Shown in pieces: positions 114 through 64,000 of a stretch of 64,000 nucleotides of DNA. The position numbers were made by a program, and so were the translations under genes. This stretch comes from a bacterium (GTDB lineage: Bacteria; Patescibacteriota; Minisyncoccia; UBA6257; JAUSGH01): positions 10,907 through 74,906 of the forward strand of contig JAUSGH010000001.1 in the NCBI GenBank assembly GCA_030649055.1. Direction: 5' to 3'. The number at the start of each line of letters is the position of its first letter. The first letter of the stretch is position 1. The notes under the pieces were generated by a model that ran no database searches, had not been told where the DNA came from, and saw nothing but the letters and a program-made list of their open reading frames with translations.

Positions 114-2597
114 CTATTTCCCATGACACTTCTTATATTTAATAGGATGTTCGCTCGCATCCTTCGCTCCGCACGGGCACGGGTCATTTCTCCCGATTTT
201 CTGACCAGGGTTGAGCGTATAGGGTTTAGCGTTTGGGATAACTGCAGGGCTCTGAATCTTTTTTTCTACTATACCCTCAACGCTAGACGCTAAACGCTCT
301 CTATTCGCACTCACCCACTCCTCAAACGTGGCGAGCAGCTGTTTGAACATAATGTGCCCCTCCCGTTTGTATTCAACAAGTGGGTCGTGCTGACCGTAGG
401 CACGGAGACGCACGGCGTCGCCCAATGCTTCCATGTCGGAGAGATGGTTCATCCAAATCATGTCCAGCATTGCCAACACGGTTGGCAATGCGGAATCAGG
501 AATTTTGAATAATGAATCAGGAGCCGCGGGCGTTTCGCTGTCGTGATTTATAATTCCTAATTCATGCTTCTCCAGCATCTCCTGCCTCTTCCTATATATA
601 GTAAGCCGCTGGCGGTTTAGGACGTCGTCGTACTCCAGCAAGTGTTTGCGGGAATCAAAGTGAAATCCTTCAACGCGGGATTGCGCCTCGCCGATGGCTC
701 GGGAGATAAGCCCTGCGCTGATGGGCATATCATCGGGAACGCTGAGGCGTTCCATAAGGCGCTTCAAGCGGTCGCCGGCAAAAATGCGCATCAGGTCATC
801 TTCCAGTGAAAGGAAAAATTGTGAGGAGCCCGGGTCCCCTTGCCGGCCGGCGCGTCCACGGAGCTGGTTATCAATGCGGCGCGCTTCGTGCCGTTCGGTG
901 CCGATGACGTGCAACCCCCCCGCGTCGCGCGCTTTCTGCGCTTCTAAAATCTCCGGCGGGTTTCCGCCCAGAATAATGTCCACACCACGGCCGGCCATGT
1001 TTGTTGCAACCGTAACTGCTCCGAGCCGTCCCGCTTGCGCGATGATGGCGCCCTCACGCTCGTTATTTTTGGCGTTCAGCATTTCGTGGCTAATGCCGGC
1101 GCGCTTCAGGCGGCGTGAGAGCTCCTCGTTCTTTTCAATGGAGACTGTGCCGATCAATACCGGCTGGCCTTTTTCGTGGCGCGCTTTGATGTCGGCGATA
1201 ATCGCATCGTGTTTCGCTTCAACGGTTTTGTAAATAAGGTCCGCCTCGTCATTGCGTATCATTTCGCGATTGGTCGGAATGGTGACCACTTCCAGTTTAT
1301 ACACCTTATCAAATTCTTCGGCGGATGTTTGTGCGGTACCGGTCATGCCGCCGAGTTTGTTGTACAAACGGAAATAGTTTTGAATGGAAATCTGCGCATA
1401 GGTGCGTGATTCCTGGTTCACGCGTACGCCTTCCTTCGCCTCTATTGCCTGGTGCAATCCGCCGGAAAAACGCCGTCCTTGCATGAGCCGTCCGGTGAAC
1501 TGGTCAACGATGATAATTTCTCCGTCTTTTGAAACATAGTCACGGTCGCGAAGGTAAAGGCCGTACGCTTTTAAGCTTTCTTGCAAGTAGTGCGTGAGGC
1601 GGAGGTTTTCGGGCGCGTAGATATTTTTGATATTCATCACCTGCTCCACCTTGTCGATGCCGGCATCGGTGATGTCGGCGGAGTGCATTTTCTCGTCAAC
1701 AAGGTAGTCCACGCCTTTTTCGAGGCGTGCGACAACGCGCGCGAATGTTTTGTAAAGCTCGCTTGATTCGCTGTCGGGCGCGGAAATAATAAGCGGAGTG
1801 CGCGCCTCGTCAATTAAAATGCTGTCCACTTCGTCGATAATGGCGTAGTGCCAGCCGCGCTGCACCTGCCGCAAAAGGTTGTTTTCCAGATTATCGCGGA
1901 GATAGTCAAAACCGAATTCGTGGTTGGTGCCGTAGGTAATGTCGGCGGCATATGCTTCACGCCGTGAAATCGGCCGGAGATATGCCTCTTGCACCAAGTA
2001 CGCGCCGGTTACGTCGCGTTCTTTATCTAACAAGGCCGACTCCGCGTGTTCGTGTTTCTGATCATTTGAATTTGTTTCGGATTTCGGATTTCGGATTTCG
2101 GATTTTGCGTGCAAATATGTGGGGTCGTATATCACGGCGCCTTCGTGAATAAGACACGCGACACTCATTCCGAGCGCACGATAAATCTGTCCCATCCAAA
2201 CGGCGTCGCGTTTTGCGAGGTATTCGTTGACGGTAACGACATGCACGCCCTCCCCTTTTAGCGCGTGCAGATACGCGGGTGCGGTTGCGGCCAAAGTTTT
2301 TCCTTCACCGGTGCGCATCTCAACAATTTTTCCCTGGGCAAGCGCGATGCCGCCCATGAGCTGCGCGTCATAATGGCGCTGTTTCAATGCGCGCTTTGCG
2401 GTTTCGCGCACAAGCGCGAACGCGCGGGGTAGAAGTGCCTCTATGGGTTCTCCTTTCCGGGCGCGTTCTCGAAGTTTTTTGCTTTCATTCAACAGAAACT
2501 CATCACCGAGCGGAGCGATCTCCGCTTCCAGCGCGTTGATTTCCGCAACGGTTTTTTTGAGTTTTTTTATTGGGCTAAACAAACCAAAAAAGTTCAT
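114..2597 (-). CDS. secA: Preprotein translocase ATPase SecA
   Basis: 827 aa translation has the SecA DEAD-motor motifs (MGGIALAQGKIVEMRTGEGKT, TVNEYLAKRD) and a C-terminal CPCG zinc-binding tail. Confidence 0.95.
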   Translation of the reverse strand: MNFFGLFSPIKKLKKTVAEINALEAEIAPLGDEFLLNESKKLRERARKGEPIEALLPRAFALVRETAKRALKQRHYDAQLMGGIALAQGKIVEMRTGEGKTLAATAPAYLHALKGEGVHVVTVNEYLAKRDAVWMGQIYRALGMSVACLIHEGAVIYDPTYLHAKSEIRNPKSETNSNDQKHEHAESALLDKERDVTGAYLVQEAYLRPISRREAYAADITYGTNHEFGFDYLRDNLENNLLRQVQRGWHYAIIDEVDSILIDEARTPLIISAPDSESSELYKTFARVVARLEKGVDYLVDEKMHSADITDAGIDKVEQVMNIKNIYAPENLRLTHYLQESLKAYGLYLRDRDYVSKDGEIIIVDQFTGRLMQGRRFSGGLHQAIEAKEGVRVNQESRTYAQISIQNYFRLYNKLGGMTGTAQTSAEEFDKVYKLEVVTIPTNREMIRNDEADLIYKTVEAKHDAIIADIKARHEKGQPVLIGTVSIEKNEELSRRLKRAGISHEMLNAKNNEREGAIIAQAGRLGAVTVATNMAGRGVDIILGGNPPEILEAQKARDAGGLHVIGTERHEARRIDNQLRGRAGRQGDPGSSQFFLSLEDDLMRIFAGDRLKRLMERLSVPDDMPISAGLISRAIGEAQSRVEGFHFDSRKHLLEYDDVLNRQRLTIYRKRQEMLEKHELGIINHDSETPAAPDSLFKIPDSALPTVLAMLDMIWMNHLSDMEALGDAVRLRAYGQHDPLVEYKREGHIMFKQLLATFEEWVSANRERLASSVEGIVEKKIQSPAVIPNAKPYTLNPGQKIGRNDPCPCGAKDASEHPIKYKKCHGK

Positions 2598-5058: not shown

Positions 5059-5448
5059 CTAGAAAATATTCTCGTAATAATTTATTAGAAAATTATTTCC
5101 CAACTCTGTCAAGTACTCCGGAAAAAGCTGAACAGCGGCGACGTCCGCCCTCCATCCCCTCTCCCCTACTTGCTCCGGGTACTTTAATGCGTAGAATTCC
5201 GCGATCTTTTTGAACTTCTTTACCTTCGCCGAGGTCATATTGTCCTCCGGCTTTAACGCGGCTCCCCCGCCAGTAAGCAAGGTCTTTACCTCTATAAATA
5301 GAAGCAACCCATCTTTCGCCTTTGCAACGATGTCGATTTCACCGAATTTTTGCCGGTAGTTTCTTGCGATGATTTTGCAGCCACTTTTTACGAGGTGCTC
5401 TACGGCAAGCTCCTCGCCGAGATCACCGATGGTTTTGGTTGATGTCAT
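5059..5448 (-). CDS. yraN: YraN/UPF0102 family endonuclease
   Basis: GDLGEELAVEHLVKSGCKIIARNYRQKFGEIDIVA...LLFIEVKT matches UPF0102. Start trimmed to the internal ATG (MTSTKTIG). Confidence 0.75.
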   Translation of the reverse strand: MTSTKTIGDLGEELAVEHLVKSGCKIIARNYRQKFGEIDIVAKAKDGLLLFIEVKTLLTGGGAALKPEDNMTSAKVKKFKKIAEFYALKYPEQVGERGWRADVAAVQLFPEYLTELGNNFLINYYENIF

Positions 5449-5504
5449 ATGCGTTACAGTGTTTGACGGCAAACACTCGTACAATCCTTCGACAAGCTCA
5501 GGAT

Positions 5505-6015
5505 AAATAAAACAATAAAGCAATGAATCAAAAAAGCAACACAATGTTTACCGTCAAACAATGTTTACCGTCAAACATTGTTTCAGGCGAGGATGTTTGC
5601 CGGCAAACATTTGAAATGTATCAAAAGCCACTAAAAATACGGCAAGAGTACTGTTAATACGGCAAAACATGCTACTTTGCCGTATTTGTTTTATATTTTC
5701 GGTGAAATTGTTTCACGTCAAACACGCAGACAAGAAAACAATAAAGCAATAAATCAAAGAAGCGACAGATGTTTGCCGTCAAACAATTGTTTGACGGTAA
5801 ACAATTGTCTTGGGTGGAGGACATCGAAAAAACGTGATAAAGTGTTTGCCGTCAAACAATTGTTTTGGTAAAAATGACAAAAGTGTAGGTTTAATCAACC
5901 GATTGGATTATGGAGAAATTGCCTAGAAAGTAGGCTATAAAATGTTTAACAGATTGTTTAACGCCATGTAAATAAGTCAATCGGATAGGTTTAATCAACC
6001 GATTGGATTAAAAAA
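5505..6015. repeat. Cluster of iteron-like or operator-like direct and palindromic repeats in a 650-bp non-coding gap
   Basis: tgtttaccgtcaaaca is repeated in tandem three times at 5548-5598. Two roughly 70-bp imperfect direct repeats lie at 5507-5578 and 5737-5808. A perfect 22-bp palindrome ccgtcaaacaattgtttgacgg lies at 5777-5798. aggtttaatcaaccgattggatta occurs at both 5887 and 5988. Confidence 0.6.
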
Positions 6016-6112
6016 CACCCGTGAAACAAATTATACTGTAAAACAATATTGTGCGACAGATATGTAAAGTGTAACGGCCAGCTCGAGGTTGTCGGGCTGG
6101 CCGTCGTGTAGA

Positions 6113-21827: not shown

Positions 21828-23117
21828 ATGTCTCGTCGGCTTTTGATTACATTGGGAGTTTTGGCGCTCATCGTCGTCCTTTTTGTATTGGTGTTTACCG
21901 GAGTCATCCCCGGTCTCCGAAAGGACATCACCGCGAATAAAGTCGCGCTTTCCATGTGGGGCGTGTTTGACGCGCCGGATGCATTCAGCGCGGTAATAAA
22001 CGCGTATAAAGCGCAAGCGCCGAATGTGTCAATCGCGTACAAGCAATTTGCTCCGGAGGATTATGAGCGTGAACTGGTGAATGCGTTGGCGGCGGGGAAG
22101 GGGCCGGATATGTTCATGGCGCATAACACCTGGCTCCCGAAACACTATGACAAAATGCTTCCGCTGACCGGCGAATCGCTACCCATCGCGACATTTCGGA
22201 ATCTGTTCCCGCGTGTCGTGGAGCAGGACTTCGCGCCGGACGGCCTCATCTATGCCCTTCCTTTATATGTAGACTCTCTGGCGCTCTTCTATAATAAGGA
22301 CGCGTTTGATAACGCGGGCCGTGCCGTGCCGCCGAAAAATTGGGAACAAGTAAATGCCTTGATTCCCAAACTCCGCGCCATTGACCGGAGCGGAAAAATT
22401 ACGAAAGCCGCGGTTGCTATCGGCGGTTCGCCTAAGAGCATCAACCGCGCGACGGATCTGCTTTCGCTTATTATGATGCAGGGCGGCGCGCCGATGGTCT
22501 CCGAGGGTTTCGGCGGCGCGCAGTTTGCCGTGAAAGGGGCGGCTGGGTTGGATTTCTATACGCAGTTTGTTGATCCAAAAAGCCCGCTCTACACATGGAA
22601 TGACCAACTGCACTATTCACTGGACGCATTCGCGGAGGGGAGCGTGGCGATGATGTTTAACTATCAGTACAACATCGCCGCGTTGAAGCAGAAAAATCCG
22701 TTTTTGATGTTCGGCGTCGCCGGAATGCCGCAGCCACGCACCGCCGCGAATCGCGTTGATTACGCGAACTACTTTGGGCTTGCGGTTTCGGGACGTAGCC
22801 GCAACGCAGCCGCGGCGTGGGATTTCATCAAGTTTTTGACGACAAACGAAAATGTTTCCGCGGCGTATCTTCGGGCAAACGGCCATGCGCCGGCGCTTCG
22901 TGTGCTTATTGACGCGCAGAGCGATGAGTCCGACGCCGGCGTGTTCGCGAGGCAGGCATTGACCGCGCGGTCATATCCGCAAATTGACAATACCGAAGTG
23001 GAGCGCGTCATGGGCGAGTTGATTGAGAACGCCATTTACGGAAAACTTCCGAAGGACCGGGCTTTGCGGCAGGCAGAGGATGCGATAACGACGCTGATTA
23101 GGGAACGGGCGAAGTAA
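21828..23117 (+). CDS. Extracellular solute-binding protein (ABC family-1, sugar type), orphan
   Basis: N-terminal TM/signal anchor and a fold typical of maltose/oligosaccharide-binding proteins. No permease or ATPase genes adjacent. Confidence 0.65.
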   Translation: MSRRLLITLGVLALIVVLFVLVFTGVIPGLRKDITANKVALSMWGVFDAPDAFSAVINAYKAQAPNVSIAYKQFAPEDYERELVNALAAGKGPDMFMAHNTWLPKHYDKMLPLTGESLPIATFRNLFPRVVEQDFAPDGLIYALPLYVDSLALFYNKDAFDNAGRAVPPKNWEQVNALIPKLRAIDRSGKITKAAVAIGGSPKSINRATDLLSLIMMQGGAPMVSEGFGGAQFAVKGAAGLDFYTQFVDPKSPLYTWNDQLHYSLDAFAEGSVAMMFNYQYNIAALKQKNPFLMFGVAGMPQPRTAANRVDYANYFGLAVSGRSRNAAAAWDFIKFLTTNENVSAAYLRANGHAPALRVLIDAQSDESDAGVFARQALTARSYPQIDNTEVERVMGELIENAIYGKLPKDRALRQAEDAITTLIRERAK

Positions 23118-30551: not shown

Positions 30552-30629
30552 TGGACCCGGTTTGCTTAGGCATCCGGGTCCGCTCTATTTGAAAATATGT
30601 CGGCGAAGCAGTATGATATGAATGCAAAT

Positions 30630-30771
30630 GCGCCCGTAGCTCAATGGTTAGAGCACCGAGCTTCCAATCGGCAGCGAGGATGGAGTAAAGTTGTGGCAAT
30701 GCGCCTGTAGCTCAATGGTTAGAGCACCGAGCTTCCAATCGGCAGCGAGGATGGAGTAAAGTTGTGGCGTT
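30630..30771 (+). pseudogene. Two tandem 71-bp units, each a tRNA 5' half plus a 37-nt spacer
   Basis: Unit 1 at 30630-30700 has acceptor gcgcccg, and unit 2 at 30701-30771 has acceptor gcgcctg. Both read ..gtagctcaatggttagagcaccgagctt + ccaatcggcagcgaggatggagtaaagttgtggc and lack an anticodon loop 3' side, T-arm and 3' acceptor. Confidence 0.7.
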
Positions 30772-30844
30772 GGGCGTGTAGCTCAATGGTTAGAGCACCG
30801 AGCTTATACCTCGGTGGTTCCTGGTTCGAGTCCAGGCACGCCCA
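30772..30844 (+). tRNA. tRNA-Ile (anticodon TAT)
   Basis: Acceptor gggcgtg/cacgccc, D-arm gctc-aatggtta-gagc, anticodon stem ccgag/ctcgg with loop cttatac, T-arm cctgg-ttcgagt-ccagg. No CCA encoded. Confidence 0.7.
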
Positions 30845-30890
30845 CAAATTTATTACATCCGAGCGAACCGATTGCATGCTAAAGGCATGG

Positions 30891-33437: not shown

Positions 33438-33485
33438 AGTCATCCGAGGATGACAAGCAGGGAGTGGTGCTATAATGAAAATACA

Positions 33486-36400
33486 ATGACGCTATATTTT
33501 GGTCCGTCAAAATTCTTGCTTCTTTGCTTTCTTGCTTCTTTGCTTTTATTTTCCTCTGCGCACGCCCAGACCGCCGGCACGTGGGACTCGCGCGCGGCGG
33601 TTTCGGCAAGCGTGAGTCAATCCGCGAGCCTTCTCGCATACCCGGGTAGCGGCAATCTTATCTATCAGCGCCGTGGCGACGATAATACGTTCAATAGTTA
33701 CAGCATCTCCGGAGATTCGTGGTCGGCGCTTACCTCCGACAACTGCGGCGCAGGCATCGGCAACGGCTCATTTTTAGTGCGCGGCGATAGCGGATTTTTG
33801 TACGCCGCGTGTCCCGGCGGGAACGACACAACGGACTTCGTGCGCTATGATATCTCTGGCGCCGATTGGGAGGAGCGCGCAACCTCGCCTTCTGGTTTTG
33901 GAAACGGTGCTGCGGCGGTATGGGACGGCAGCGACTATATATACGCGCTTCCTGGCGATGCAATGGCTGCTTTTTATCGCTACACCATTTCTACTAATGT
34001 GTGGGACTCCATGACTGCCTCGCCGACGGGTGTTACCGGTGGCGGCTCACTTGCATATCCCGGGAGCGGCAACTTTATTTACGCTTTCCGTGGTAGTGAC
34101 CTCACAACATTCTACCGCTACCACATCACCGAAAACGACTGGTCACCCATAACCGCCGCGCCAGATACCGTTGGTGGCGGCGGCTCGCTTGTTGCTATCG
34201 ACACGTCAACAATCTACGCCTTGCGCGGTGAAGGGGGCGGTACGCCACGAACGGATTTCTGGAGCTACGGCATCTCCGGCGACAGCTGGACGGTGCTCAC
34301 CGTCGCCCCAGCGGCTGTCGGCGCAGGTGGATCTCTTGCCTATGTGTCCAATTCATCGGGAACATTTCTCTATCAGCTCCGCGGTAATGCGACTACGGAT
34401 TTCAATCGGTATACCATTTCCGTCGTAGCGGCGAGTACCGGCAGTTCGGCCGGCAGCTTCCTTCTTGCCGCTCGGCAAGACGGGGGACTTTCGCTTGCTC
34501 GCGCAACGCCACCCGCCTCGCCGACAAATGTCGTGGTGACGCCATTGCCGTGCAACGGCACCTGCGGCGCGACAATCGCGCTTTCATACGCCGCGCTTTC
34601 CGTGCATCGTGGGCGCCCGATGACGTTCGCGTTTATCGATGAATCCGGGAAAACATTGGGAAGCATCTACGAGCCGTACGCGAACGGAAAGTCATACACT
34701 ATGGAGCTCAAAAATCTTCCGCAAAACAGCCCATTAAACGGACGGCTTTGCGCGCAGTTCAGTCCTGGTGAGGGTTGCGCGAATGTCCAAAGCTGGACGC
34801 TCTGGTCGCTTGACGCCGCAAAAGTGAAATTAAGCGCCGCGCCTGAGGGTGACCGGTATCGTGTGCGCGTGGCAGTCCCTCCGTTTATGAATGAGGGGGT
34901 GGATGCGAGCGGCGTGCGTGTTGCGATAGAGGAGAACGGCGCGGTAAAACCCATGAGCATGAAAAACGGCCGCGTGCCGGCCGCGACGCTTGCGCAAGTC
35001 GTTACAACAATCGGTACGCACGAGACAATAACGCAGGTTGCGCCGTTCATAAACACCGCGATTACCCCCCCAGCGCCTTCCGGTGGACTTTCCGTGCCCC
35101 GTACTACGCTTGATGTTATTTCTATACTTCCCGTCATACAGGCGGCGCCGAAAACAGGGAGTGGCGGAATCTCCGTGCCGTCAAAAGCAGCTCCGTCGCC
35201 GGTGCCGGTGAAGGAGAGTTTGCCCGGAACATTACTCCAAAGATCCGGCGAGTGGGCAACCATGCTTGCGCCTGGCGAATATCGCATGGTCTTGACTCCC
35301 ATAAACGGCAAAGGCGTGCTCGGTGTTCCGCTTACACTGCCGCTGTCACTCAAACCCTTTGGCGAAGCGATGACACTTACGGCCGGCATGGAGGCGGAGG
35401 ATGGCACGCTCCGGACAATAATCGATGCGACCTCGAATCGTCTTGGGAATACCGGCATAGACATCATTGCGGAGCGTAAAGGAAGCGCCTTCGCGTTTCG
35501 CTCGACGGAGAAATCCGTTGAGGTACGCGTGTCACTTGTCGCGGCGCTCGCGAAAGCTGAAGAACATTTTGATTTTGTTTTTGCGTGCGCGCCCGGGGGA
35601 GGTAACTGCGCGGTAAAAAGCGTTGCCGCGCAAAAAGGGAATATTATCAACCGAGCGGCCATTGCGAAAAACAGCAACGGATTTGTGACGGTGAAAACGG
35701 AAGATGCGATTGCGACGGTGCGCGTAACCGAAGGGATAACGCAGATAAGCATTTCCGCGACCGGGGAGTTGAAGCGGCTGAGGAGCGAAGAATACGTCGC
35801 GTTAAACGCGCTTCGCGGCGGCACCGCGACATTTTCCGTTTCAGCGGCCGATGTACTTGGAAATACCGCGGCGATCCGCGACGTGCCGGTGAACATTCCG
35901 GGGAGCGAGGCGGCGATTGCCGCGTTTACCGTTACGTCCGCGGGCGATGAGGGTGACGTGGAAGCGCGTGGAGTTATTGATTATTCGAATTTCACCGCGC
36001 GCGGATTGCTACTTAATCTTTCGTTCGCCGAGGAAGGATTGAGCGTCGAGGGTACAGTGGCAAGTATTCCGCAGTTGGTGCAGTTGCTCGTCGCGCGCGA
36101 TGACGGGACGGGCGTACAATTCGCGCTTTCGTGCGAAGCCTCGCCACAGGCGGGCGAAGCCTCGCCGCAGGTAGGCGAAAAAACTTGCGGTATTGTCGCG
36201 ATCGCGGCGCCTCAAGGAACGCCGCTTGAAGTAGTGCCTGAAGAAAATCCGGACGGCACAATGCGCGCGGAGGCGGGCGGCATCACGCTGACGTATGATA
36301 CGCAAAACGCATTGCCGATGCTTGTCGGGGCGGATGCGGCGGGATTTTCCAATATTGAAATCCGCGCGCGCTACCCGTCATTCGGTCTCGGTAATTTCAC

Positions 36401-46657: not shown

Positions 46658-47552
46658 AATGATTACACTGAAATGTTGACCTTAAAGCATAACCCCTGCG
46701 GCTCCTAGTCCTCCATAAAGAGGACAATTTCCAGAGCCGCGCACAGCGGCTTTTGTCGTTGTAAGGGGACCGGTGCTGACTGAAACGAACGGACATTGAT
46801 AAACAGGATCTGACAGAAAATTCTTTTTTGTCGGGTGCTCATAAGTAAATCAATGCAAATGAAAACGCAATTTCAAGAGTATTATCGAAAGCATTCAATG
46901 CTTCGATGATCGGTTTTACTGCTCAATATCTGCATGATGGCGGAGTATTGAGTACGCCTCGTTAAGTCGCCTCAGGCGACCGCGAGGTTGCACGCGTTGA
47001 ATTCAGAGCGTGTATAAGGGCGTATGGTGGATGCCTAGACACAAAATGGCGATGAAGGACGCAGCATAACTGCGATAAGCTTCGGGGAGGTGTGTAGCAA
47101 CCTTTGATCCGGAGATTTCCGAATGGGGAAACCCTGCGCGGTAAACCCGCGTAACGCATGCGATTAAACGCGCATGTGAGCAGACCCGCTGAAGTGAAAC
47201 ATCTCAGTAAGCGGAGGAATAAAAATAGATTAGATTCCCCAAGTAGCGGCGAGCGAAAAGGGAACAGCCTAAACTTTAGTGTGTGCAGCAATGTATACGC
47301 TGGAGGGTTGCAAGGGTAAGACATTTTTGCGTATCGCAAAGCTCTCGTTAAACAGGGCTGTGCGATTCGCGGAAGATTGGTTACAAATTGCTTCGTTAGC
47401 TGAAGCTTCTGGAAAGAAGCGCCAAAGTGAGTGATAGCCTCGTAAGCGAAAACAAAGCAACCAATTCGTTTTATTTCTTAAGTACCTCGAGACCACAACA
47501 TCTCGAGGGAATCCGCCAGTACTATCTGGTAAGGCTAAATACATTTTGTGAT

Positions 47553-47589
<37 letters not shown>

Positions 47590-49458
47590 CAGCCCGGCGA
47601 GGGCGCTGAAATAGTACCTGAAACCATATGTCTACAAGGACTAGAAGTCCAACCACTGAGCAATCAGTGGCGGACAACTAGGTGCCTATTGAAGAATGAG
47701 CCAACGACTTTACGTTTACTGCTTGTCTAAGTCGCTTCATGCGACGGAGGCATAGGGAAACCGAGTGTTAATAGCGCGTTCTCTTATTTATGACCGAGTA
47801 GCTGGTATGCTTCCAGCGTTCGGTCATAGATGAGAAGGCAGTAAGTGTAAGACCCGAAGCCAAGGCGAGCTTGCCCTGACCAGGATGAACCCGAGCGAAA
47901 GCGAGGGGGAGGTCCGAACCAGTTGATTGTGCAAAATCTTTGGATGAGTTGGGGTAAGAAGTGAAAAGCTAATCGAGCTTGGTAATAGCTGGTTCTCTCC
48001 GAAATAGTTTTAGGACTAGCGTTCCGCAAAAACCGTATGGGGGTAGAGCACTGGTTGATTCGTATTGGGGGAAACCTCGGCGCATCAGTCAAACTCCGAA
48101 TACCATACGGGACGCGGGATAGTCAGACTGTGGGGGCAAAGCTCCATGGTCGCGAGGGGAATAGCCCAGACCGTCGTCTAAGGTCCCTAAATTCTTGCTA
48201 AGTGTAAAAGGTAGTCATGCCCCAGAGACAGATAGGAGGTTGGCTTAGAGGTAGCCATCCTTTAAAGAGTGTGTAACAACTCACTATTCGATGGGTCGTG
48301 GCGCCAAAAATGTACCGGGGCTAAGCAAGATACCGACGACACGGGTGTCCATGACTTCGGTCGTGGACGCGGTAGGAGAGCATTCTGATTGCTGTGAAGG
48401 TTCATCCGTGAGGAGGACTGGAGCGTTCAGGAGTGAGAATGTTGGCATGAGTAACCATCAAATCCGATGAGAAATCGGATCCCCGAAAATCCAAGGTTTC
48501 CGTGGCAATGGCAATCAACCACGGGTTAGGCGATCCTAAGGCAATGGCGAAAACCGTAGCCGATGGGTAGCCGGTTAATATTCCGGCCCGCGCTTATTTG
48601 TGCGATGGGGTGACGGAGGAAAAAAGGTTGAGCGTCTCAATGGTTTGACGTCGCTGATGATAAGGAATGTGTTCTTGGCAAATCCGGAGCACTGTGTTTA
48701 ATCGCGAATTCCGCGCGTCGGCGTAAGGCCAAGTTTTACTTGGCTAATTCAACTGAAGAGCCTTCCAAGAAAAACCTCTAAGTTTAGGATAAGCGCATCG
48801 TACCGTAAACCGACACAGGTGGGTGAGGCGAGACGCCTCAGGGGAACGAGTGAGTCTTGGTCAAGGAACTAGGCAAAAAAGCGGCCGTACCTTCGGTATA
48901 AGGCCTGCCCGTCACGCCGCAAGGTGTGCATGGGCTGCAACAAAAGTACATTTGGCGACTGTTTATCAAAAACACAGCTTCCTGCTAACTCGTAAGAGGA
49001 TGTATAGGAGGTGACACTTGACCGATGCGAGAAGGTTAACGGTGGGTGTGTATTCGAAAGCAATTTTGGATATGCTCACTGCCCGAAGCCCTCGTCAATG
49101 TCAGCGGTAACTATAACCGTTCTAAGGTAGCGCAATTCCTTTCCGGGTAAGTTCCGGAGCGCATGAATAGTGTAACGATCGAATGACTGTCTCGACCAAG
49201 AGCTCGGTGAAATTGCGATTCCCGTGAAGACGCGGGATACCTGTAACGGGACGAAAAGACCCCGGGAGCTTTACTGTAGTTTGATATTGGCTTTAACGTT
49301 TTTCTGCGTAGCGTAGTGGCGAGGGTATGAAACCTGGTTTTCGGATCAGGTGGACCCGACAATGAAACAGCCATCTGGAAAATGTTAAAATCTAACCTTT
49401 ACGGCAAAAACGTATTGGGACAGTGTCTGATGGGCAGTTTTAATGGGGCGTTATCCTC

Positions 49459-49793
49459 AACAAAACGATTGACATCCGTTCAATCGAGGGGGTTAACGTA
49501 ATAAAAAATTCAGCTATATGCTGGGACATCCGTGCATCTTCAAGTACTCGGGCGCTTCGCGCTCAGTGAAAATCTTGAAGTGGCATCCGCCAGGTGGCGG
49601 ATCGACGGACAATCAGCAGGCAACCTCCGACGGACATCGGAGAGAGTCCTCAACGACTATACGCTGAACATCGTGATGTCACTCGCGATGAAGATATAGT
49701 CTGACCTCTGTGGCGACACAGAGAGTTGTGGTAGAAATGCCGCGCCGATCACCGGCAACTAAATTTTAGAGTTGCTGGCGATGTGTAACAAAT
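49459..49793 (+). other. ORF-less insertion of about 335 nt in 23S next to the P-loop region (candidate group I intron)
   Basis: Flanking sequence reads ...ggcgttatcctc | insertion | ctaaaaagtaacggaggag. The flanks together restore the conserved GGTCTCCTCCTAAAGAGTAACGGAGGAG. Boundaries +/- 2 nt. Confidence 0.55.
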
Positions 49794-50127
49794 GCCTAAA
49801 AAGTAACGGAGGAGTTTATTAAGGTTGGCTTAGCGCGAATGGAAACCGCGCTGGACGTGTAAACGCAAAAGCCAGCTTGACGGCAAGACCTACAAGTCGC
49901 GCCGGTGCGAAAGCAGAAGTTAGTGACCCGATGATCCGTCATAGAATGGTCAGAGACATCGGCTAAAAGTTACCCCGGGGATAACAGGCTAGTCTGGTCC
50001 GAGAGTTCCTATCGACGACCAGGCTCGGCACCTCGATGTCGGCTCGCCCTAGCGCGGAGGTGGAGAAGCTTCCAAGCGTATGGCTGTTCGCCATTTAAAA
50101 GGGCACGTGAGCTGGGTTCAAACCGTC

Positions 50128-50401
50128 AACGAAAAAGAACCTAGAGAAGACATCAACAAACGGCGGCGCTTTGCCGTAAGGCAAAGCTGAGAAGTTGACT
50201 CATATCGGTGAAGTCCTACAAAATCTTTAACCTGGGTTTTGAGGATAACCCCGAGGGAAGGTCCGATGAACGTCGGACCCCCGTAGAGACTTGATCGTAA
50301 GGGATCGGAATCCGGTTTTATAATCGGGTTAATACGTCAACCCTCCGATGAATATCGGAGTGATGGTATAGTCCAAACAATTAGTAATAATTGAGTATTG
50401 C
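50128..50401 (+). other. ORF-less insertion of about 274 nt in 23S at the I-CreI-type homing site (candidate group I intron)
   Basis: Flanks aaccgtc | insertion | gtgagacaggttagtc restore the conserved AACGTCGTGAGACAGTTCGG. Boundaries +/- 2 nt. Confidence 0.55.
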
Positions 50402-50826
50402 GTGAGACAGGTTAGTCTCTACCTGTTACAGGCGTGTGATGCTTGAGGGCAGTCGACCCTAGTACGAGAGGACCGGGTTGAACGAACCTCTGGTCTACCA
50501 GCTTTAGTACCAACTGAATCGCTGGGTAGCTAAGTTCGGAAGGGATAAGCGCTGAAAGCATATAAGCGCGAAGCCTAGCCCAAGATAAGGCATCTTTCCG
50601 CAAGGAAGCAGTCCGTAGAAGATTACTACGTTGATAGGTCGCAGGTGTAAGATCAGTAATGATTTCAGCCGAGCGATACTAATAGACTGTCACACGCTCT
50701 GAATTGAGCGCATGAAAGTAGCGTTCTCTGTAGAAATATAGAGGGCGCCAGTAAAACCGATCATCAAAGCATTGAACCCCCGCCTTTCGGCGGGGGGAAA
50801 GGGTTAGAAAAAACAACCTTTTTGTT

Positions 50827-50943
50827 TGCTGGTGTTTTGTTTCGATGTGTCCCACCTCTTCCCATTCCGAACAGAGTCGTGAAAGCATCGTGAGCCGATG
50901 ATACTAGCTGCTTCGGCGGCCGGGAAAGTAGGATATGCCAGCA
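50827..50943 (+). rRNA. rrf: 5S ribosomal RNA
   Basis: tgctggtg...cccacctcttcccattccgaacagag...ccgatgatact...gggaaagtaggatatgccagca. Confidence 0.85.
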
Positions 50944-51561: not shown

Positions 51562-51678
51562 GGCGCATCCTCCGAAGGGAGACAATCAAAACACTAATCA
51601 GAACCATAACGGAACTCGTCGCCTTTGTCGAGCGTCTTTTGTTTTCTTGTTTTTTTGATTTCTTGGTAGAGTGAATGT

Positions 51679-59703: not shown

Positions 59704-63300
<3,597 letters not shown>

Positions 63301-63331
63301 GGGATAGAGCATGGGAAGCAATGAAACAAAA

Positions 63332-63366
63332 AAGCATGGAAGCATATGGCGCCATGCTTTTTTGTT
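63332..63366 (+). terminator. Intrinsic terminator after rpoC
   Basis: aagcatgg-loop-ccatgctt followed by ttttgtttg. Confidence 0.6.
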
Positions 63367-64000
63367 TGCTATGTTTTGTTATACTTAAAGTAATATGCAA
63401 TTCCAGAATCAAAGAAGCAACCACCTTCCCAATTTATTGCTTTATTGCTTTATTGCTTTATTTCCCTGCCGCCGCTCATGCCTTCAACGGTCCGCCGCCG
63501 GGAAATCCGCCAACCGGTAACGGCTCCATTGTTACGGATGCCTCAAACCGCGTTGGGATTGGAACAGCATCACCCGACCAACTACTCACCGTTAAAAACG
63601 GAATGGTGCATGTCGCGAACGGCGCGACGCTTACGACAACTCCGGGAAGCACCGCTGGATATGGTCTTTTTATCGGCACCGATAACGCAACGGGCGAGTC
63701 GCGCATTCAAACCTATTGGAATACAGGCACGTCATTTTTGACTTTTCATACAAATACCGGCGGACTTGCAAGCGTGGAACGTGCGCGTATTGACGCAAAT
63801 GGCTTGACGACCACCGGCTTCAAACTTACCACCGGACCGGCAATCGGCTACGTTTTGACAAGCGACGCGACAGGTGTTGGCACATGGCAAGCAACGGCGG
63901 GTGATATCACCGGAGTTACGGCCGGAACGGGACTCACAGGAGGAGGAGTTTCAGGCACGGTTACGTTAAATCTTTCTACCCCCGTGACAGTCGCGAATGG
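63354..64000 (+). CDS. Secreted Gly/Thr-rich repeat protein, 5' partial (runs off the window); start uncertain
   Basis: This frame encodes a signal peptide ending AAAHA followed by NGPPPGNPPTGNGSIVTDASNRVGIGTASPDQLLTVKNG..., a fibre or adhesin-like low-complexity protein. The only in-frame ATG upstream of the signal peptide is at 63354, inside the rpoC terminator. Confidence 0.45.
   Translation, partial: MLFCLLCFVILKVICNSRIKEATTFPIYCFIALLLYFPAAAHAFNGPPPGNPPTGNGSIVTDASNRVGIGTASPDQLLTVKNGMVHVANGATLTTTPGSTAGYGLFIGTDNATGESRIQTYWNTGTSFLTFHTNTGGLASVERARIDANGLTTTGFKLTTGPAIGYVLTSDATGVGTWQATAGDITGVTAGTGLTGGGVSGTVTLNLSTPVTVAN

Follow-up and report, generated by a model that had tools for sequence, protein, structure and literature searches.

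Helicobacter pylori oipA reportedly carries CT dinucleotide repeats in its 5' signal-sequence region, and a repeat tract is likewise said to lie in the signal-peptide region of Gardnerella nanH3. In Escherichia coli lacI, the three CTGG units studied by Farabaugh et al. in 1978 are said to form a frameshift hotspot, with gain and loss of a unit far above ordinary frameshifts. The opa tracts of Neisseria run to approximately 7-28 pentamers. These CTCTT pentamers are located in the leader-peptide-coding region of opa and undergo slipped-strand mispairing at a rate of approximately 1e-3 per cell per generation (PMC3960869). We analyzed a stretch of 64,000 nucleotides (hereafter the window) from contig JAUSGH010000001.1 of the bacterial assembly GCA_030649055.1, in which an 8-nt tandem repeat is located in the predicted signal-peptide-coding region of a tail-fibre-like gene directly following rpoC. 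We consider this repeat a plausible, unproven opa-like switch, and we give a probability of roughly 45% to its being a slippage toggle caught in the OFF state.

The initial annotation of this DNA had already likened the repeat to the phase-variation switches of surface antigens, and opa is the right analogy, its repeats likewise being found in leader-peptide-coding DNA. As in opa, the unit of the fibre repeat is not a multiple of three, lies just after the start codon within the signal-peptide core of a surface protein, and is hydrophobic in every frame; the unit count sets the frame of the mature protein, and ON and OFF states can be read by arithmetic. Unlike opa, the fibre tract has an 8-nt unit in 3-4 copies, is not conserved in orthologs and is known here from one sequenced allele, and its host is a Candidate Phyla Radiation (CPR) bacterium with leaderless-type starts. 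Unlike the Opa beta-barrel, the protein is tail-fibre-like and has no Pfam match, and the resemblance is one of switch design alone. As in oipA and nanH3, a gene for a secreted or surface protein has in its 5' coding region a simple-sequence repeat that yields in-frame and out-of-frame alleles, but those of oipA and nanH3 are many-copy mono- or dinucleotide tracts with ON/OFF isolates reportedly documented, and here we have one octanucleotide allele. The lacI tract is, like ours, a low-copy (3x) repeat with a unit that is not a multiple of three, and because it is a reported hotspot, three copies would suffice for a mutational hotspot. Phasome screens with PhasomeIt accept 5-9-nt units from three copies upwards, longer units being said to need fewer copies, and define the ON state as the longest ATG-initiated open reading frame (ORF) among the repeat states; the mutability of longer-unit repeats is little studied (PMC5953494). 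The fibre tract resembles the loci retained in this way in being intragenic, with a unit in the 5-9-nt range and at least three copies: at 3.75 copies of 8 nt it passes the cut-off (at least 3 copies), borderline at the minimum, with criteria that were calibrated on Neisseria and Campylobacter and are applied here to a CPR genome.

Read directly from the forward strand, positions 63433-63464 consist of three perfect TTTATTGC units (63433-63456) followed by TTTATTtC (63457-63464), and Tandem Repeats Finder reported positions 63433-63462 with a period of 8, 3.8 copies, 100% matches and a score of 60. The array that the initial annotation had pointed out does exist, with its position, given there as 63434-63466, shifted by 1-2 bases and its copy number, given as 3.5, better described as three perfect units and one 7/8 unit. 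We counted perfect tandem tracts with a unit of 4-20 nt, at least 3 copies and a length of at least 24 nt. The window holds two of them, the fibre-gene tract and a 7-nt x4.43 tract at 2075-2105, against a mean of 0.00 in 100 global dinucleotide shuffles and of 0.01 in 100 local shuffles (60-nt blocks) of the window; no shuffle of the window gave anything like the octanucleotide repeat, and shuffling the T-rich segment 63420-63480 5,000 times yielded 0 comparable tracts. Because shuffled sequence yields almost no comparable tracts, the fibre-gene octanucleotide repeat is real and no accident of composition. Since three units make 24 nt, that is 8 codons, the array encodes one cyclic octapeptide, FIALLLYC, whichever frame is read. 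In frame 0 it reads ...YCFIALLLYF, followed by PAAAHA and then FNGPPPG, which bears out the earlier placement of the repeat in signal-peptide-coding DNA. Of the four significant tandem tracts in the 64 kb, two lie in sequence for the signal-peptide hydrophobic cores of large secreted proteins, which accounts for far less than 1% of the window.

The long ORF of the fibre gene runs off the window end and is recorded at NCBI as 'MAG: hypothetical protein Q7R85_00355, partial' (P0001, 345 aa; MAG, metagenome-assembled genome), incomplete at the contig end. Two proteins of this MAG (locus-tag prefix Q7R85), MDO8584507.1 and MDO8584538.1, lie together on the contig, which is 75,261 nt long. Downstream of the repeat it is intact for at least 345 aa; FNGPPPGNPPTGNGSIVTDASNR is an example peptide from the mature part. 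A Pfam search returned no family for P0001, nor for a 923-aa ortholog to which the window protein is 60% identical over 200 aa. For this ortholog, matches were obtained to PHROG tail-fibre families (1.6e-12) and to two phage tail fibres of solved structure, 8vbx_R (6.7e-7) and 7z47_D (4.4e-6). The combination of a signal peptide with tail-fibre-like repeats marks the product as a putative surface or host-phage-interaction determinant, and the description of it as a secreted fibre-like surface protein holds, given the signal peptide and the PHROG and PDB tail-fibre matches of the 60%-identical ortholog.

In the public annotation (PGAP), the gene begins at ATG 63321, 21 nt past the rpoC stop. 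This ATG lies within the hairpin of the rpoC terminator, for which folding gave -23.3 kcal/mol (z = -5.3 relative to shuffled sequence). The initial annotation had named 63354 as the only in-frame ATG, which is wrong: frame 0 has ATGs at 63321, 63336 and 63354, each of them in or at the terminator stem. To locate the native start we relied on two ortholog groups, the contigs L104, L105 and L106 (RpoC 98% identical to that of the window, and mutually identical downstream of rpoC) and the contig L107 (RpoC 89% identical), each with an orthologous fibre gene directly after rpoC. In these relatives, rpoC is directly followed by its own hairpin and T-run, then by TGtTATAAT, and then by the ATG at a spacing of 12 nt in L105 and 8 nt in L107, with an in-frame TAA just upstream of the ATG in both. 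The window shows the same module at ATG 63395, with a -10 box, a TAA, a 9-nt spacer and the ATG. The ortholog signal peptides are ordinary and 25-26 aa long (MKFSVKKIICASGVLFFALTNATLA in L105 and MRNLWRFSVTFGAVLFFGVNATTALA in L107), and the junction A/FNGPPxGxPPxGxGSI (the slash marking the predicted cleavage) is invariant between the window and both orthologs.

This arrangement recurs in the genome. Of 32 gene starts, 8 have a stringent -10 match 4-13 nt before the ATG, compared with 53 of 1,962 ATGs overall (2.7%; Fisher p = 1e-6), and -10 boxes close to an ATG without a Shine-Dalgarno sequence are approximately 9-fold enriched at gene starts. Such boxes lie 5-13 nt before, for example, the ATGs at 21828, 23793, 27791, 33486, 36746, 38516, 54551 and 63395, and GGAGG-type motifs were seen in a minority of genes (e.g. 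6661 and 40938). The pattern suggests that leaderless or very-short-leader mRNAs are widespread in this CPR genome, and ATG 63395, with a near -10 box, no Shine-Dalgarno sequence and a layout that recurs across the genome, has the features of a leaderless or short-leader start. Because the ortholog starts share this layout and the -10/ATG pattern is enriched genome-wide, we take ATG 63395 to be the probable native, essentially leaderless fibre start, on a comparative and statistical basis and with a transcription start predicted from the sequence at 63392-63395. A consensus promoter and terminator scan of 63000-64000 returned nothing, because the scanner was restricted to 3-8-nt loops and two-hexamer promoters and so misses a 12-nt-loop hairpin and an extended -10 box; both elements were established by folding and by comparison with the relatives.

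We then simulated alleles in silico by the number of full units, n, reading from ATG 63395. The 8-nt unit lies inside the ORF, 38 nt past this start codon, and the simulation confirmed the initial proposal that gain or loss of one unit shifts the reading frame. At n=3, the assembled allele, ATG 63395 is out of the fibre frame and yields a 41-aa peptide and no fibre. At n=4, the fibre ORF is open and begins with the 32-aa signal peptide MQFQNQRSNHLPNLLLYCFIALLLYFPAAAHA followed by FNGPPPG; it comprises a positive n-region MQFQNQRSNHLPN, a 13-residue hydrophobic core LLLYCFIALLLYF with a maximal Kyte-Doolittle score (11-residue) of 3.0, and PAAAHA/F with AHA at -3/-1, and, judged by inspection, has the features of a Sec (type I) signal peptide. 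At n=1 the fibre is in frame with a hydrophobic core that is too short (score 1.39), at n=7 it is in frame with a long core, and at n=2 or 5 the products are 112-120 aa in the wrong frame. ATG 63395 thus joins the fibre frame at n = 1, 4 and 7 alone, with a functional core length at n = 4 or 7 alone, and one start codon gives full-length ON alleles (n=4/7) and a truncated OFF allele (n=3). Because ATG 63395 is out of frame at n=3, the deposited allele is OFF as read from its own promoter, one unit insertion short of ON. Programmed +1 ribosomal frameshifting or transcriptional slippage as a rescue of ATG 63395 was considered and rejected, as the sequence, on reading, shows no slippery-stop context and no long homopolymer. 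The coordinates of these features are given in Table 1.

Table 1. Positions in the window of the features of the fibre gene, of the preceding rpoC and of the related gene Q7R85_00235.
Feature	Position	Strand	Remarks
rpoC (RNA polymerase beta', 1198 aa)	59704..63300	+	upstream gene; homologs up to 98% identical, all with RNA_pol_Rpb1 domains
rpoC intrinsic terminator hairpin	63318..63369	+	A-tract, 14-bp stem, 12-nt loop, U-tract
Extended -10 box TGtTATACT	63377..63385	+	9 nt upstream of ATG 63395
TAA in frame of ATG 63395	63386..63388	+	closes that frame upstream
Inferred native leaderless-type start of the fibre gene	63395..63397	+	out of frame with the fibre ORF in the sequenced allele
OFF product, 41-aa ORF MQFQNQRSNHLPNLLLYCFIALFPCRRSCLQRSAAGKSANR (then stop)	63395..63520	+	from ATG 63395 in the sequenced 3-unit allele
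8-nt tandem repeat	63433..63464	+	signal-peptide hydrophobic core; 38 nt downstream of ATG 63395
Signal-peptide c-region PAAAHA, frame 0	63465..63482	+	predicted cleavage between 63482 and 63483
Mature tail-fibre-like part, frame 0	63483..64000	+	continues past the window end
Q7R85_00235 5' end	33468..33546	+	TGcTATAAT (33468-33476), 9 nt, ATG 33486, then a degenerate 8-nt array, in frame

A second array of this kind lies in Q7R85_00235, a 1067-aa secreted, Kelch/beta-propeller-like protein with the signal peptide MTLYFGPSKFLLLCFLASLLLFSSAHA/QT, whose start at ATG 33486 is confirmed by an exact NCBI protein and which shares the promoter-to-ATG spacing of the fibre gene. Its array reads TTGCTTCT TTGCTTTC TTGCTTCT TTGCTTTT and is perfect at a period of 16 (x2.12, 33513-33546). 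The signal-peptide core is made from four TTGCTTNN units, the same count as in a fibre gene with n=4. On the contig L111, a syntenic ortholog with 52% identity keeps an 8-nt x3.9 array at 336-366. Copying of the fibre 5' region from Q7R85_00235 as a cassette was not demonstrated: the -10 box and the array align, but the n-regions do not. As the three fibre units are identical whereas the Q7R85_00235 array has diverged, recent slippage events at the fibre tract are suggested.

As an opa-like toggle, the locus would work as follows. The 8-nt tract would be a slippage-prone simple sequence encoding the Sec signal-peptide core of a fast-evolving tail-fibre-like surface protein, which would be transcribed from its own extended -10 promoter and translated from the leaderless ATG 63395. 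Polymerase slippage on a repeat in the leader-peptide region whose unit is not a multiple of three would toggle translation of the surface protein: each unit gained or lost would shift the frame, with the hydrophobicity of the repeat-encoded stretch kept in every frame, ON at n=4 (or 7) and OFF at the sequenced n=3. This supposes that slippage produced the present state, and that the state would be reversible and frequent enough for population-level switching.

Several points weigh against such a toggle. The tract is absent from both orthologs (L104-L106 and L107) and is accordingly evolutionarily young and not a maintained contingency locus; among these relatives it is not a tract retained with variable length. 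Sporadic, strain-specific phase-variable loci are known, and for this reason the absence weakens but does not exclude membership among contingency loci. Protein-guided scans of GTDB genomes and JGI metagenomes found distant fibre-repeat relatives only and no conspecific. The 3.75 copies stand at the bottom of the hypermutable range, and opa loci with 1-4 pentamers were scored as non-variable (PMC5953494). The essential SecA carries the perfect 7-nt x4.43 repeat, meaning that this genome makes such tracts where switching is implausible, and the signal-peptide array of Q7R85_00235 keeps its unit count in the 52%-identical ortholog and is hence stable. Finally, the promoter and transcription start of the fibre gene are read from sequence alone.

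Most of this evidence bears directly on the competing explanation that we take most seriously and still regard as somewhat unlikely, namely a one-off slippage mutation with no switching role, be it in a recently inactivated gene or as a neutral by-product of a duplication-prone genome. Under it, either one unit was lost from a signal peptide that worked with four, or duplication gave rise to the tract; the reported lacI hotspot, which has no adaptive switching role, would be its model. The tract missing in both orthologs, the mere 3.75 copies, the comparable tract in SecA, the evolutionary stability of the Q7R85_00235 array and the presence of related 8-nt arrays in non-coding DNA all favor it, but the fibre ORF has no other sign of decay across at least 345 codons, the units are perfectly identical with the defect lying exactly one unit from ON, and two of the four significant tandem tracts fall in the small share of the window that encodes signal-peptide cores.

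It is less probable, and in our judgment unlikely, that the annotated frame-0 ORF is translated from ATG 63321, 63336 or 63354 on rpoC read-through transcripts, with the gene ON and the three units (24 nt, 8 codons) a harmless in-frame part of a long N-terminal leader. From 63180 on, this frame runs without a stop across the repeat and into the fibre ORF, PGAP picked ATG 63321, and a GGAAG lies 11 nt before ATG 63354. However, the three ATGs all lie in or at a terminator stem of -23.3 kcal/mol, the resulting N-termini carry two hydrophobic segments and no canonical n-region, and an open run of 22-44 codons before the repeat is not improbable by chance. The orthologs lack such an extension, their leaderless ATG being closely preceded by an in-frame stop, and each relative has a terminator followed by a -10 box of its own. 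The link between expression and read-through that the initial annotation had drawn is not supported for the same reason: both orthologs start downstream of their own terminators at a promoter/ATG module, and the window shares this layout. In this allele ATG 63395 is out of frame, so that, from its own promoter, the gene reads as OFF and not as a gene expressed via read-through. That the NCBI record starts at 63321 is probably an annotation error due to the frameshifted allele: the start was set within the rpoC terminator since the frame is, by chance, open at that point.

A few further observations concern the comparison with relatives. The gene-call starts of the fibre ortholog differ between L104 (10027) and L105/L106 (9751), and a frameshift polymorphism was rejected as the explanation: the DNA after rpoC is identical, and the gene callers differ. 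An A8 homopolymer (GTAAAAAAAATT, encoding KK) is located at 9764-9771 of L105 in the signal-peptide n-region of the ortholog; it is identical in L104-L106, with no variation among these three contigs. Two other contigs are uninformative for the tract, L110 (RpoC 77% identical) having no fibre gene after rpoC and L109 ending inside rpoC. Exact look-ups of RpoC, its 527-aa neighbour, P0001 and the 41-aa OFF ORF found no record, and SecA and Q7R85_00235 are each the sole member of their 90% cluster.

Beyond the two signal peptides, related arrays are dispersed in this DNA. Phased TTGNTTNN x3 arrays occur at five loci of the window against 0.00 expected: in the two signal peptides, upstream of the -10 box of gene 51679, and twice in the intergenic region 5445-6112. 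The stricter pattern TTGCTTNNTTGCTT has five occurrences in the window and six in L111, and was found in none of the 110 other fetched loci, the rpoC regions of the close relatives included. As phased arrays recur in the window and in L111 and are absent from these 110 loci, the sub-lineage has a dispersed family of 8-nt T-rich arrays, which can be read either way, as raw material for switches or as a neutral slippage habit. At 51639-51668, TTGTTTTC TTGTTTTT TTGATTTC lie in non-coding DNA directly before TGgTAGAGT and ATG 51679, and at 202-281 of L111 the promoter TGTATAAT is closely preceded by approximately 10 AAGCAAYR units, which show a 24-nt super-period.

Two broader accounts could be built on this family. 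In the first, which is improbable, 'TTGCTTNN' arrays would be evolvable, frame-independent signal-peptide modules placed after leaderless ATGs, with unit number switching surface proteins (fibre OFF, Q7R85_00235 ON) and promoter-upstream copies tuning transcription, together forming a phasome for host and phage interaction in an episymbiotic ultrasmall bacterium. In the second, the tract would belong to lineage-specific, dispersed, phased 8-nt TTGNTTNN arrays that act at the DNA level, in protein binding or promoter architecture, its overlap with coding sequence being incidental. The five loci against 0.00 expected, three of them non-coding and upstream of gene starts, the approximately 10 units just upstream of a promoter in L111 and the lack of a match in the 110 other loci speak for such an element; we nevertheless hold it to be very improbable, since the fibre and Q7R85_00235 arrays lie after the start codon and encode a textbook hydrophobic core, the latter array is kept at the protein level in L111, and an element of this kind has no known binding protein or phenotype.

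Least probable of all is an assembly or consensus artefact in which the organism has four units and an ordinary gene that is ON, one unit having been dropped by the assembler or polisher: this is a MAG consensus and the contig stops approximately 1 kb further on, inside the fibre gene, hinting at assembly difficulty or strain heterogeneity, but a 30-38-nt tract is far shorter than reads and the usual assembly k-mers, such that collapse is not expected, and the large genes rpoB, rpoC, secA and Q7R85_00235 are intact, with no signs of an indel-prone assembly.

Other repeats were noted in the course of the analysis. The 7-nt x4.43 tract at 2075-2105 lies in SecA (minus-strand gene 114-2597), reads AATCCGA on the coding strand and encodes KSEIRNPKSE; it occupies an apparent lineage-specific insertion, and a one-unit slip would frameshift SecA. 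Because SecA holds such a tract, it shows that the genome tolerates or creates tandem tracts with units that are not multiples of three outside contingency-type genes. The intergenic region 5445-6112 (approximately 650 nt, upstream of a YraN-like gene) is palindrome-rich, with at least 7 copies of the 16-bp palindrome TGTTTGCCGTCAAACA and its variants, a perfect 17-nt x2.2 repeat (5541-5577), an approximately 72-nt higher-order repeat present twice, and two minus-strand TTGNTTNN arrays at 5510-5539 and 5728-5765; it looks like an operator or iteron cluster. Positions 30627-30845 hold a 71-nt x2.5 tandem repeat with 95% matches; two truncated tRNA-like units (acceptor, D-arm and anticodon-stem look-alikes) directly precede an intact tRNA-Ile(TAT) at 30772-30845. 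A scan of viral contigs for three exact fibre units gave one match, L112, a jumbo-phage-like IMG/VR contig of 183 kb, in which 850-902 (minus strand) contains TTGCTTTA x3 followed by TTGTTTTG x3 and encodes a hydrophobic segment of a small ORF. L112 is no relative, and hydrophobic segments encoded by 8-nt microsatellites are a general phenomenon that also occurs outside this lineage.

The host genome belongs to the CPR and is Harrisonbacteria-like, the named records among the closest RpoC matches being Candidatus Harrisonbacteria and other Parcubacteria-group MAGs. Its 23S rRNA gene with a group I intron (49461-49723) and the following 5S rRNA gene (50828-50943) occupy 47004-50943, with no 16S rRNA gene beside them, as is typical for CPR genomes. 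A lifestyle of attachment to host cells is assumed for CPR bacteria, or Patescibacteria, whose surface fibres may mediate host attachment and phage recognition. In the parts of the published literature that our search reached, there is almost no mention of phase variation together with the Candidate Phyla Radiation; if real, the fibre switch would be a known kind of mechanism in a phylum almost without published mention of it.

For annotation, the locus carries a lesson of its own: the conserved leaderless start reveals the deposited allele as frameshifted despite an open frame through the terminator. If the population showed no heterogeneity at the tract, the repeat would be an ordinary slippage mutation in a fast-evolving gene. 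If 3-unit and 4-unit alleles were instead found mixed, the fibre gene would be a concrete, testable example, from an uncultured ultrasmall bacterium, of a surface fibre turned ON and OFF by slippage.

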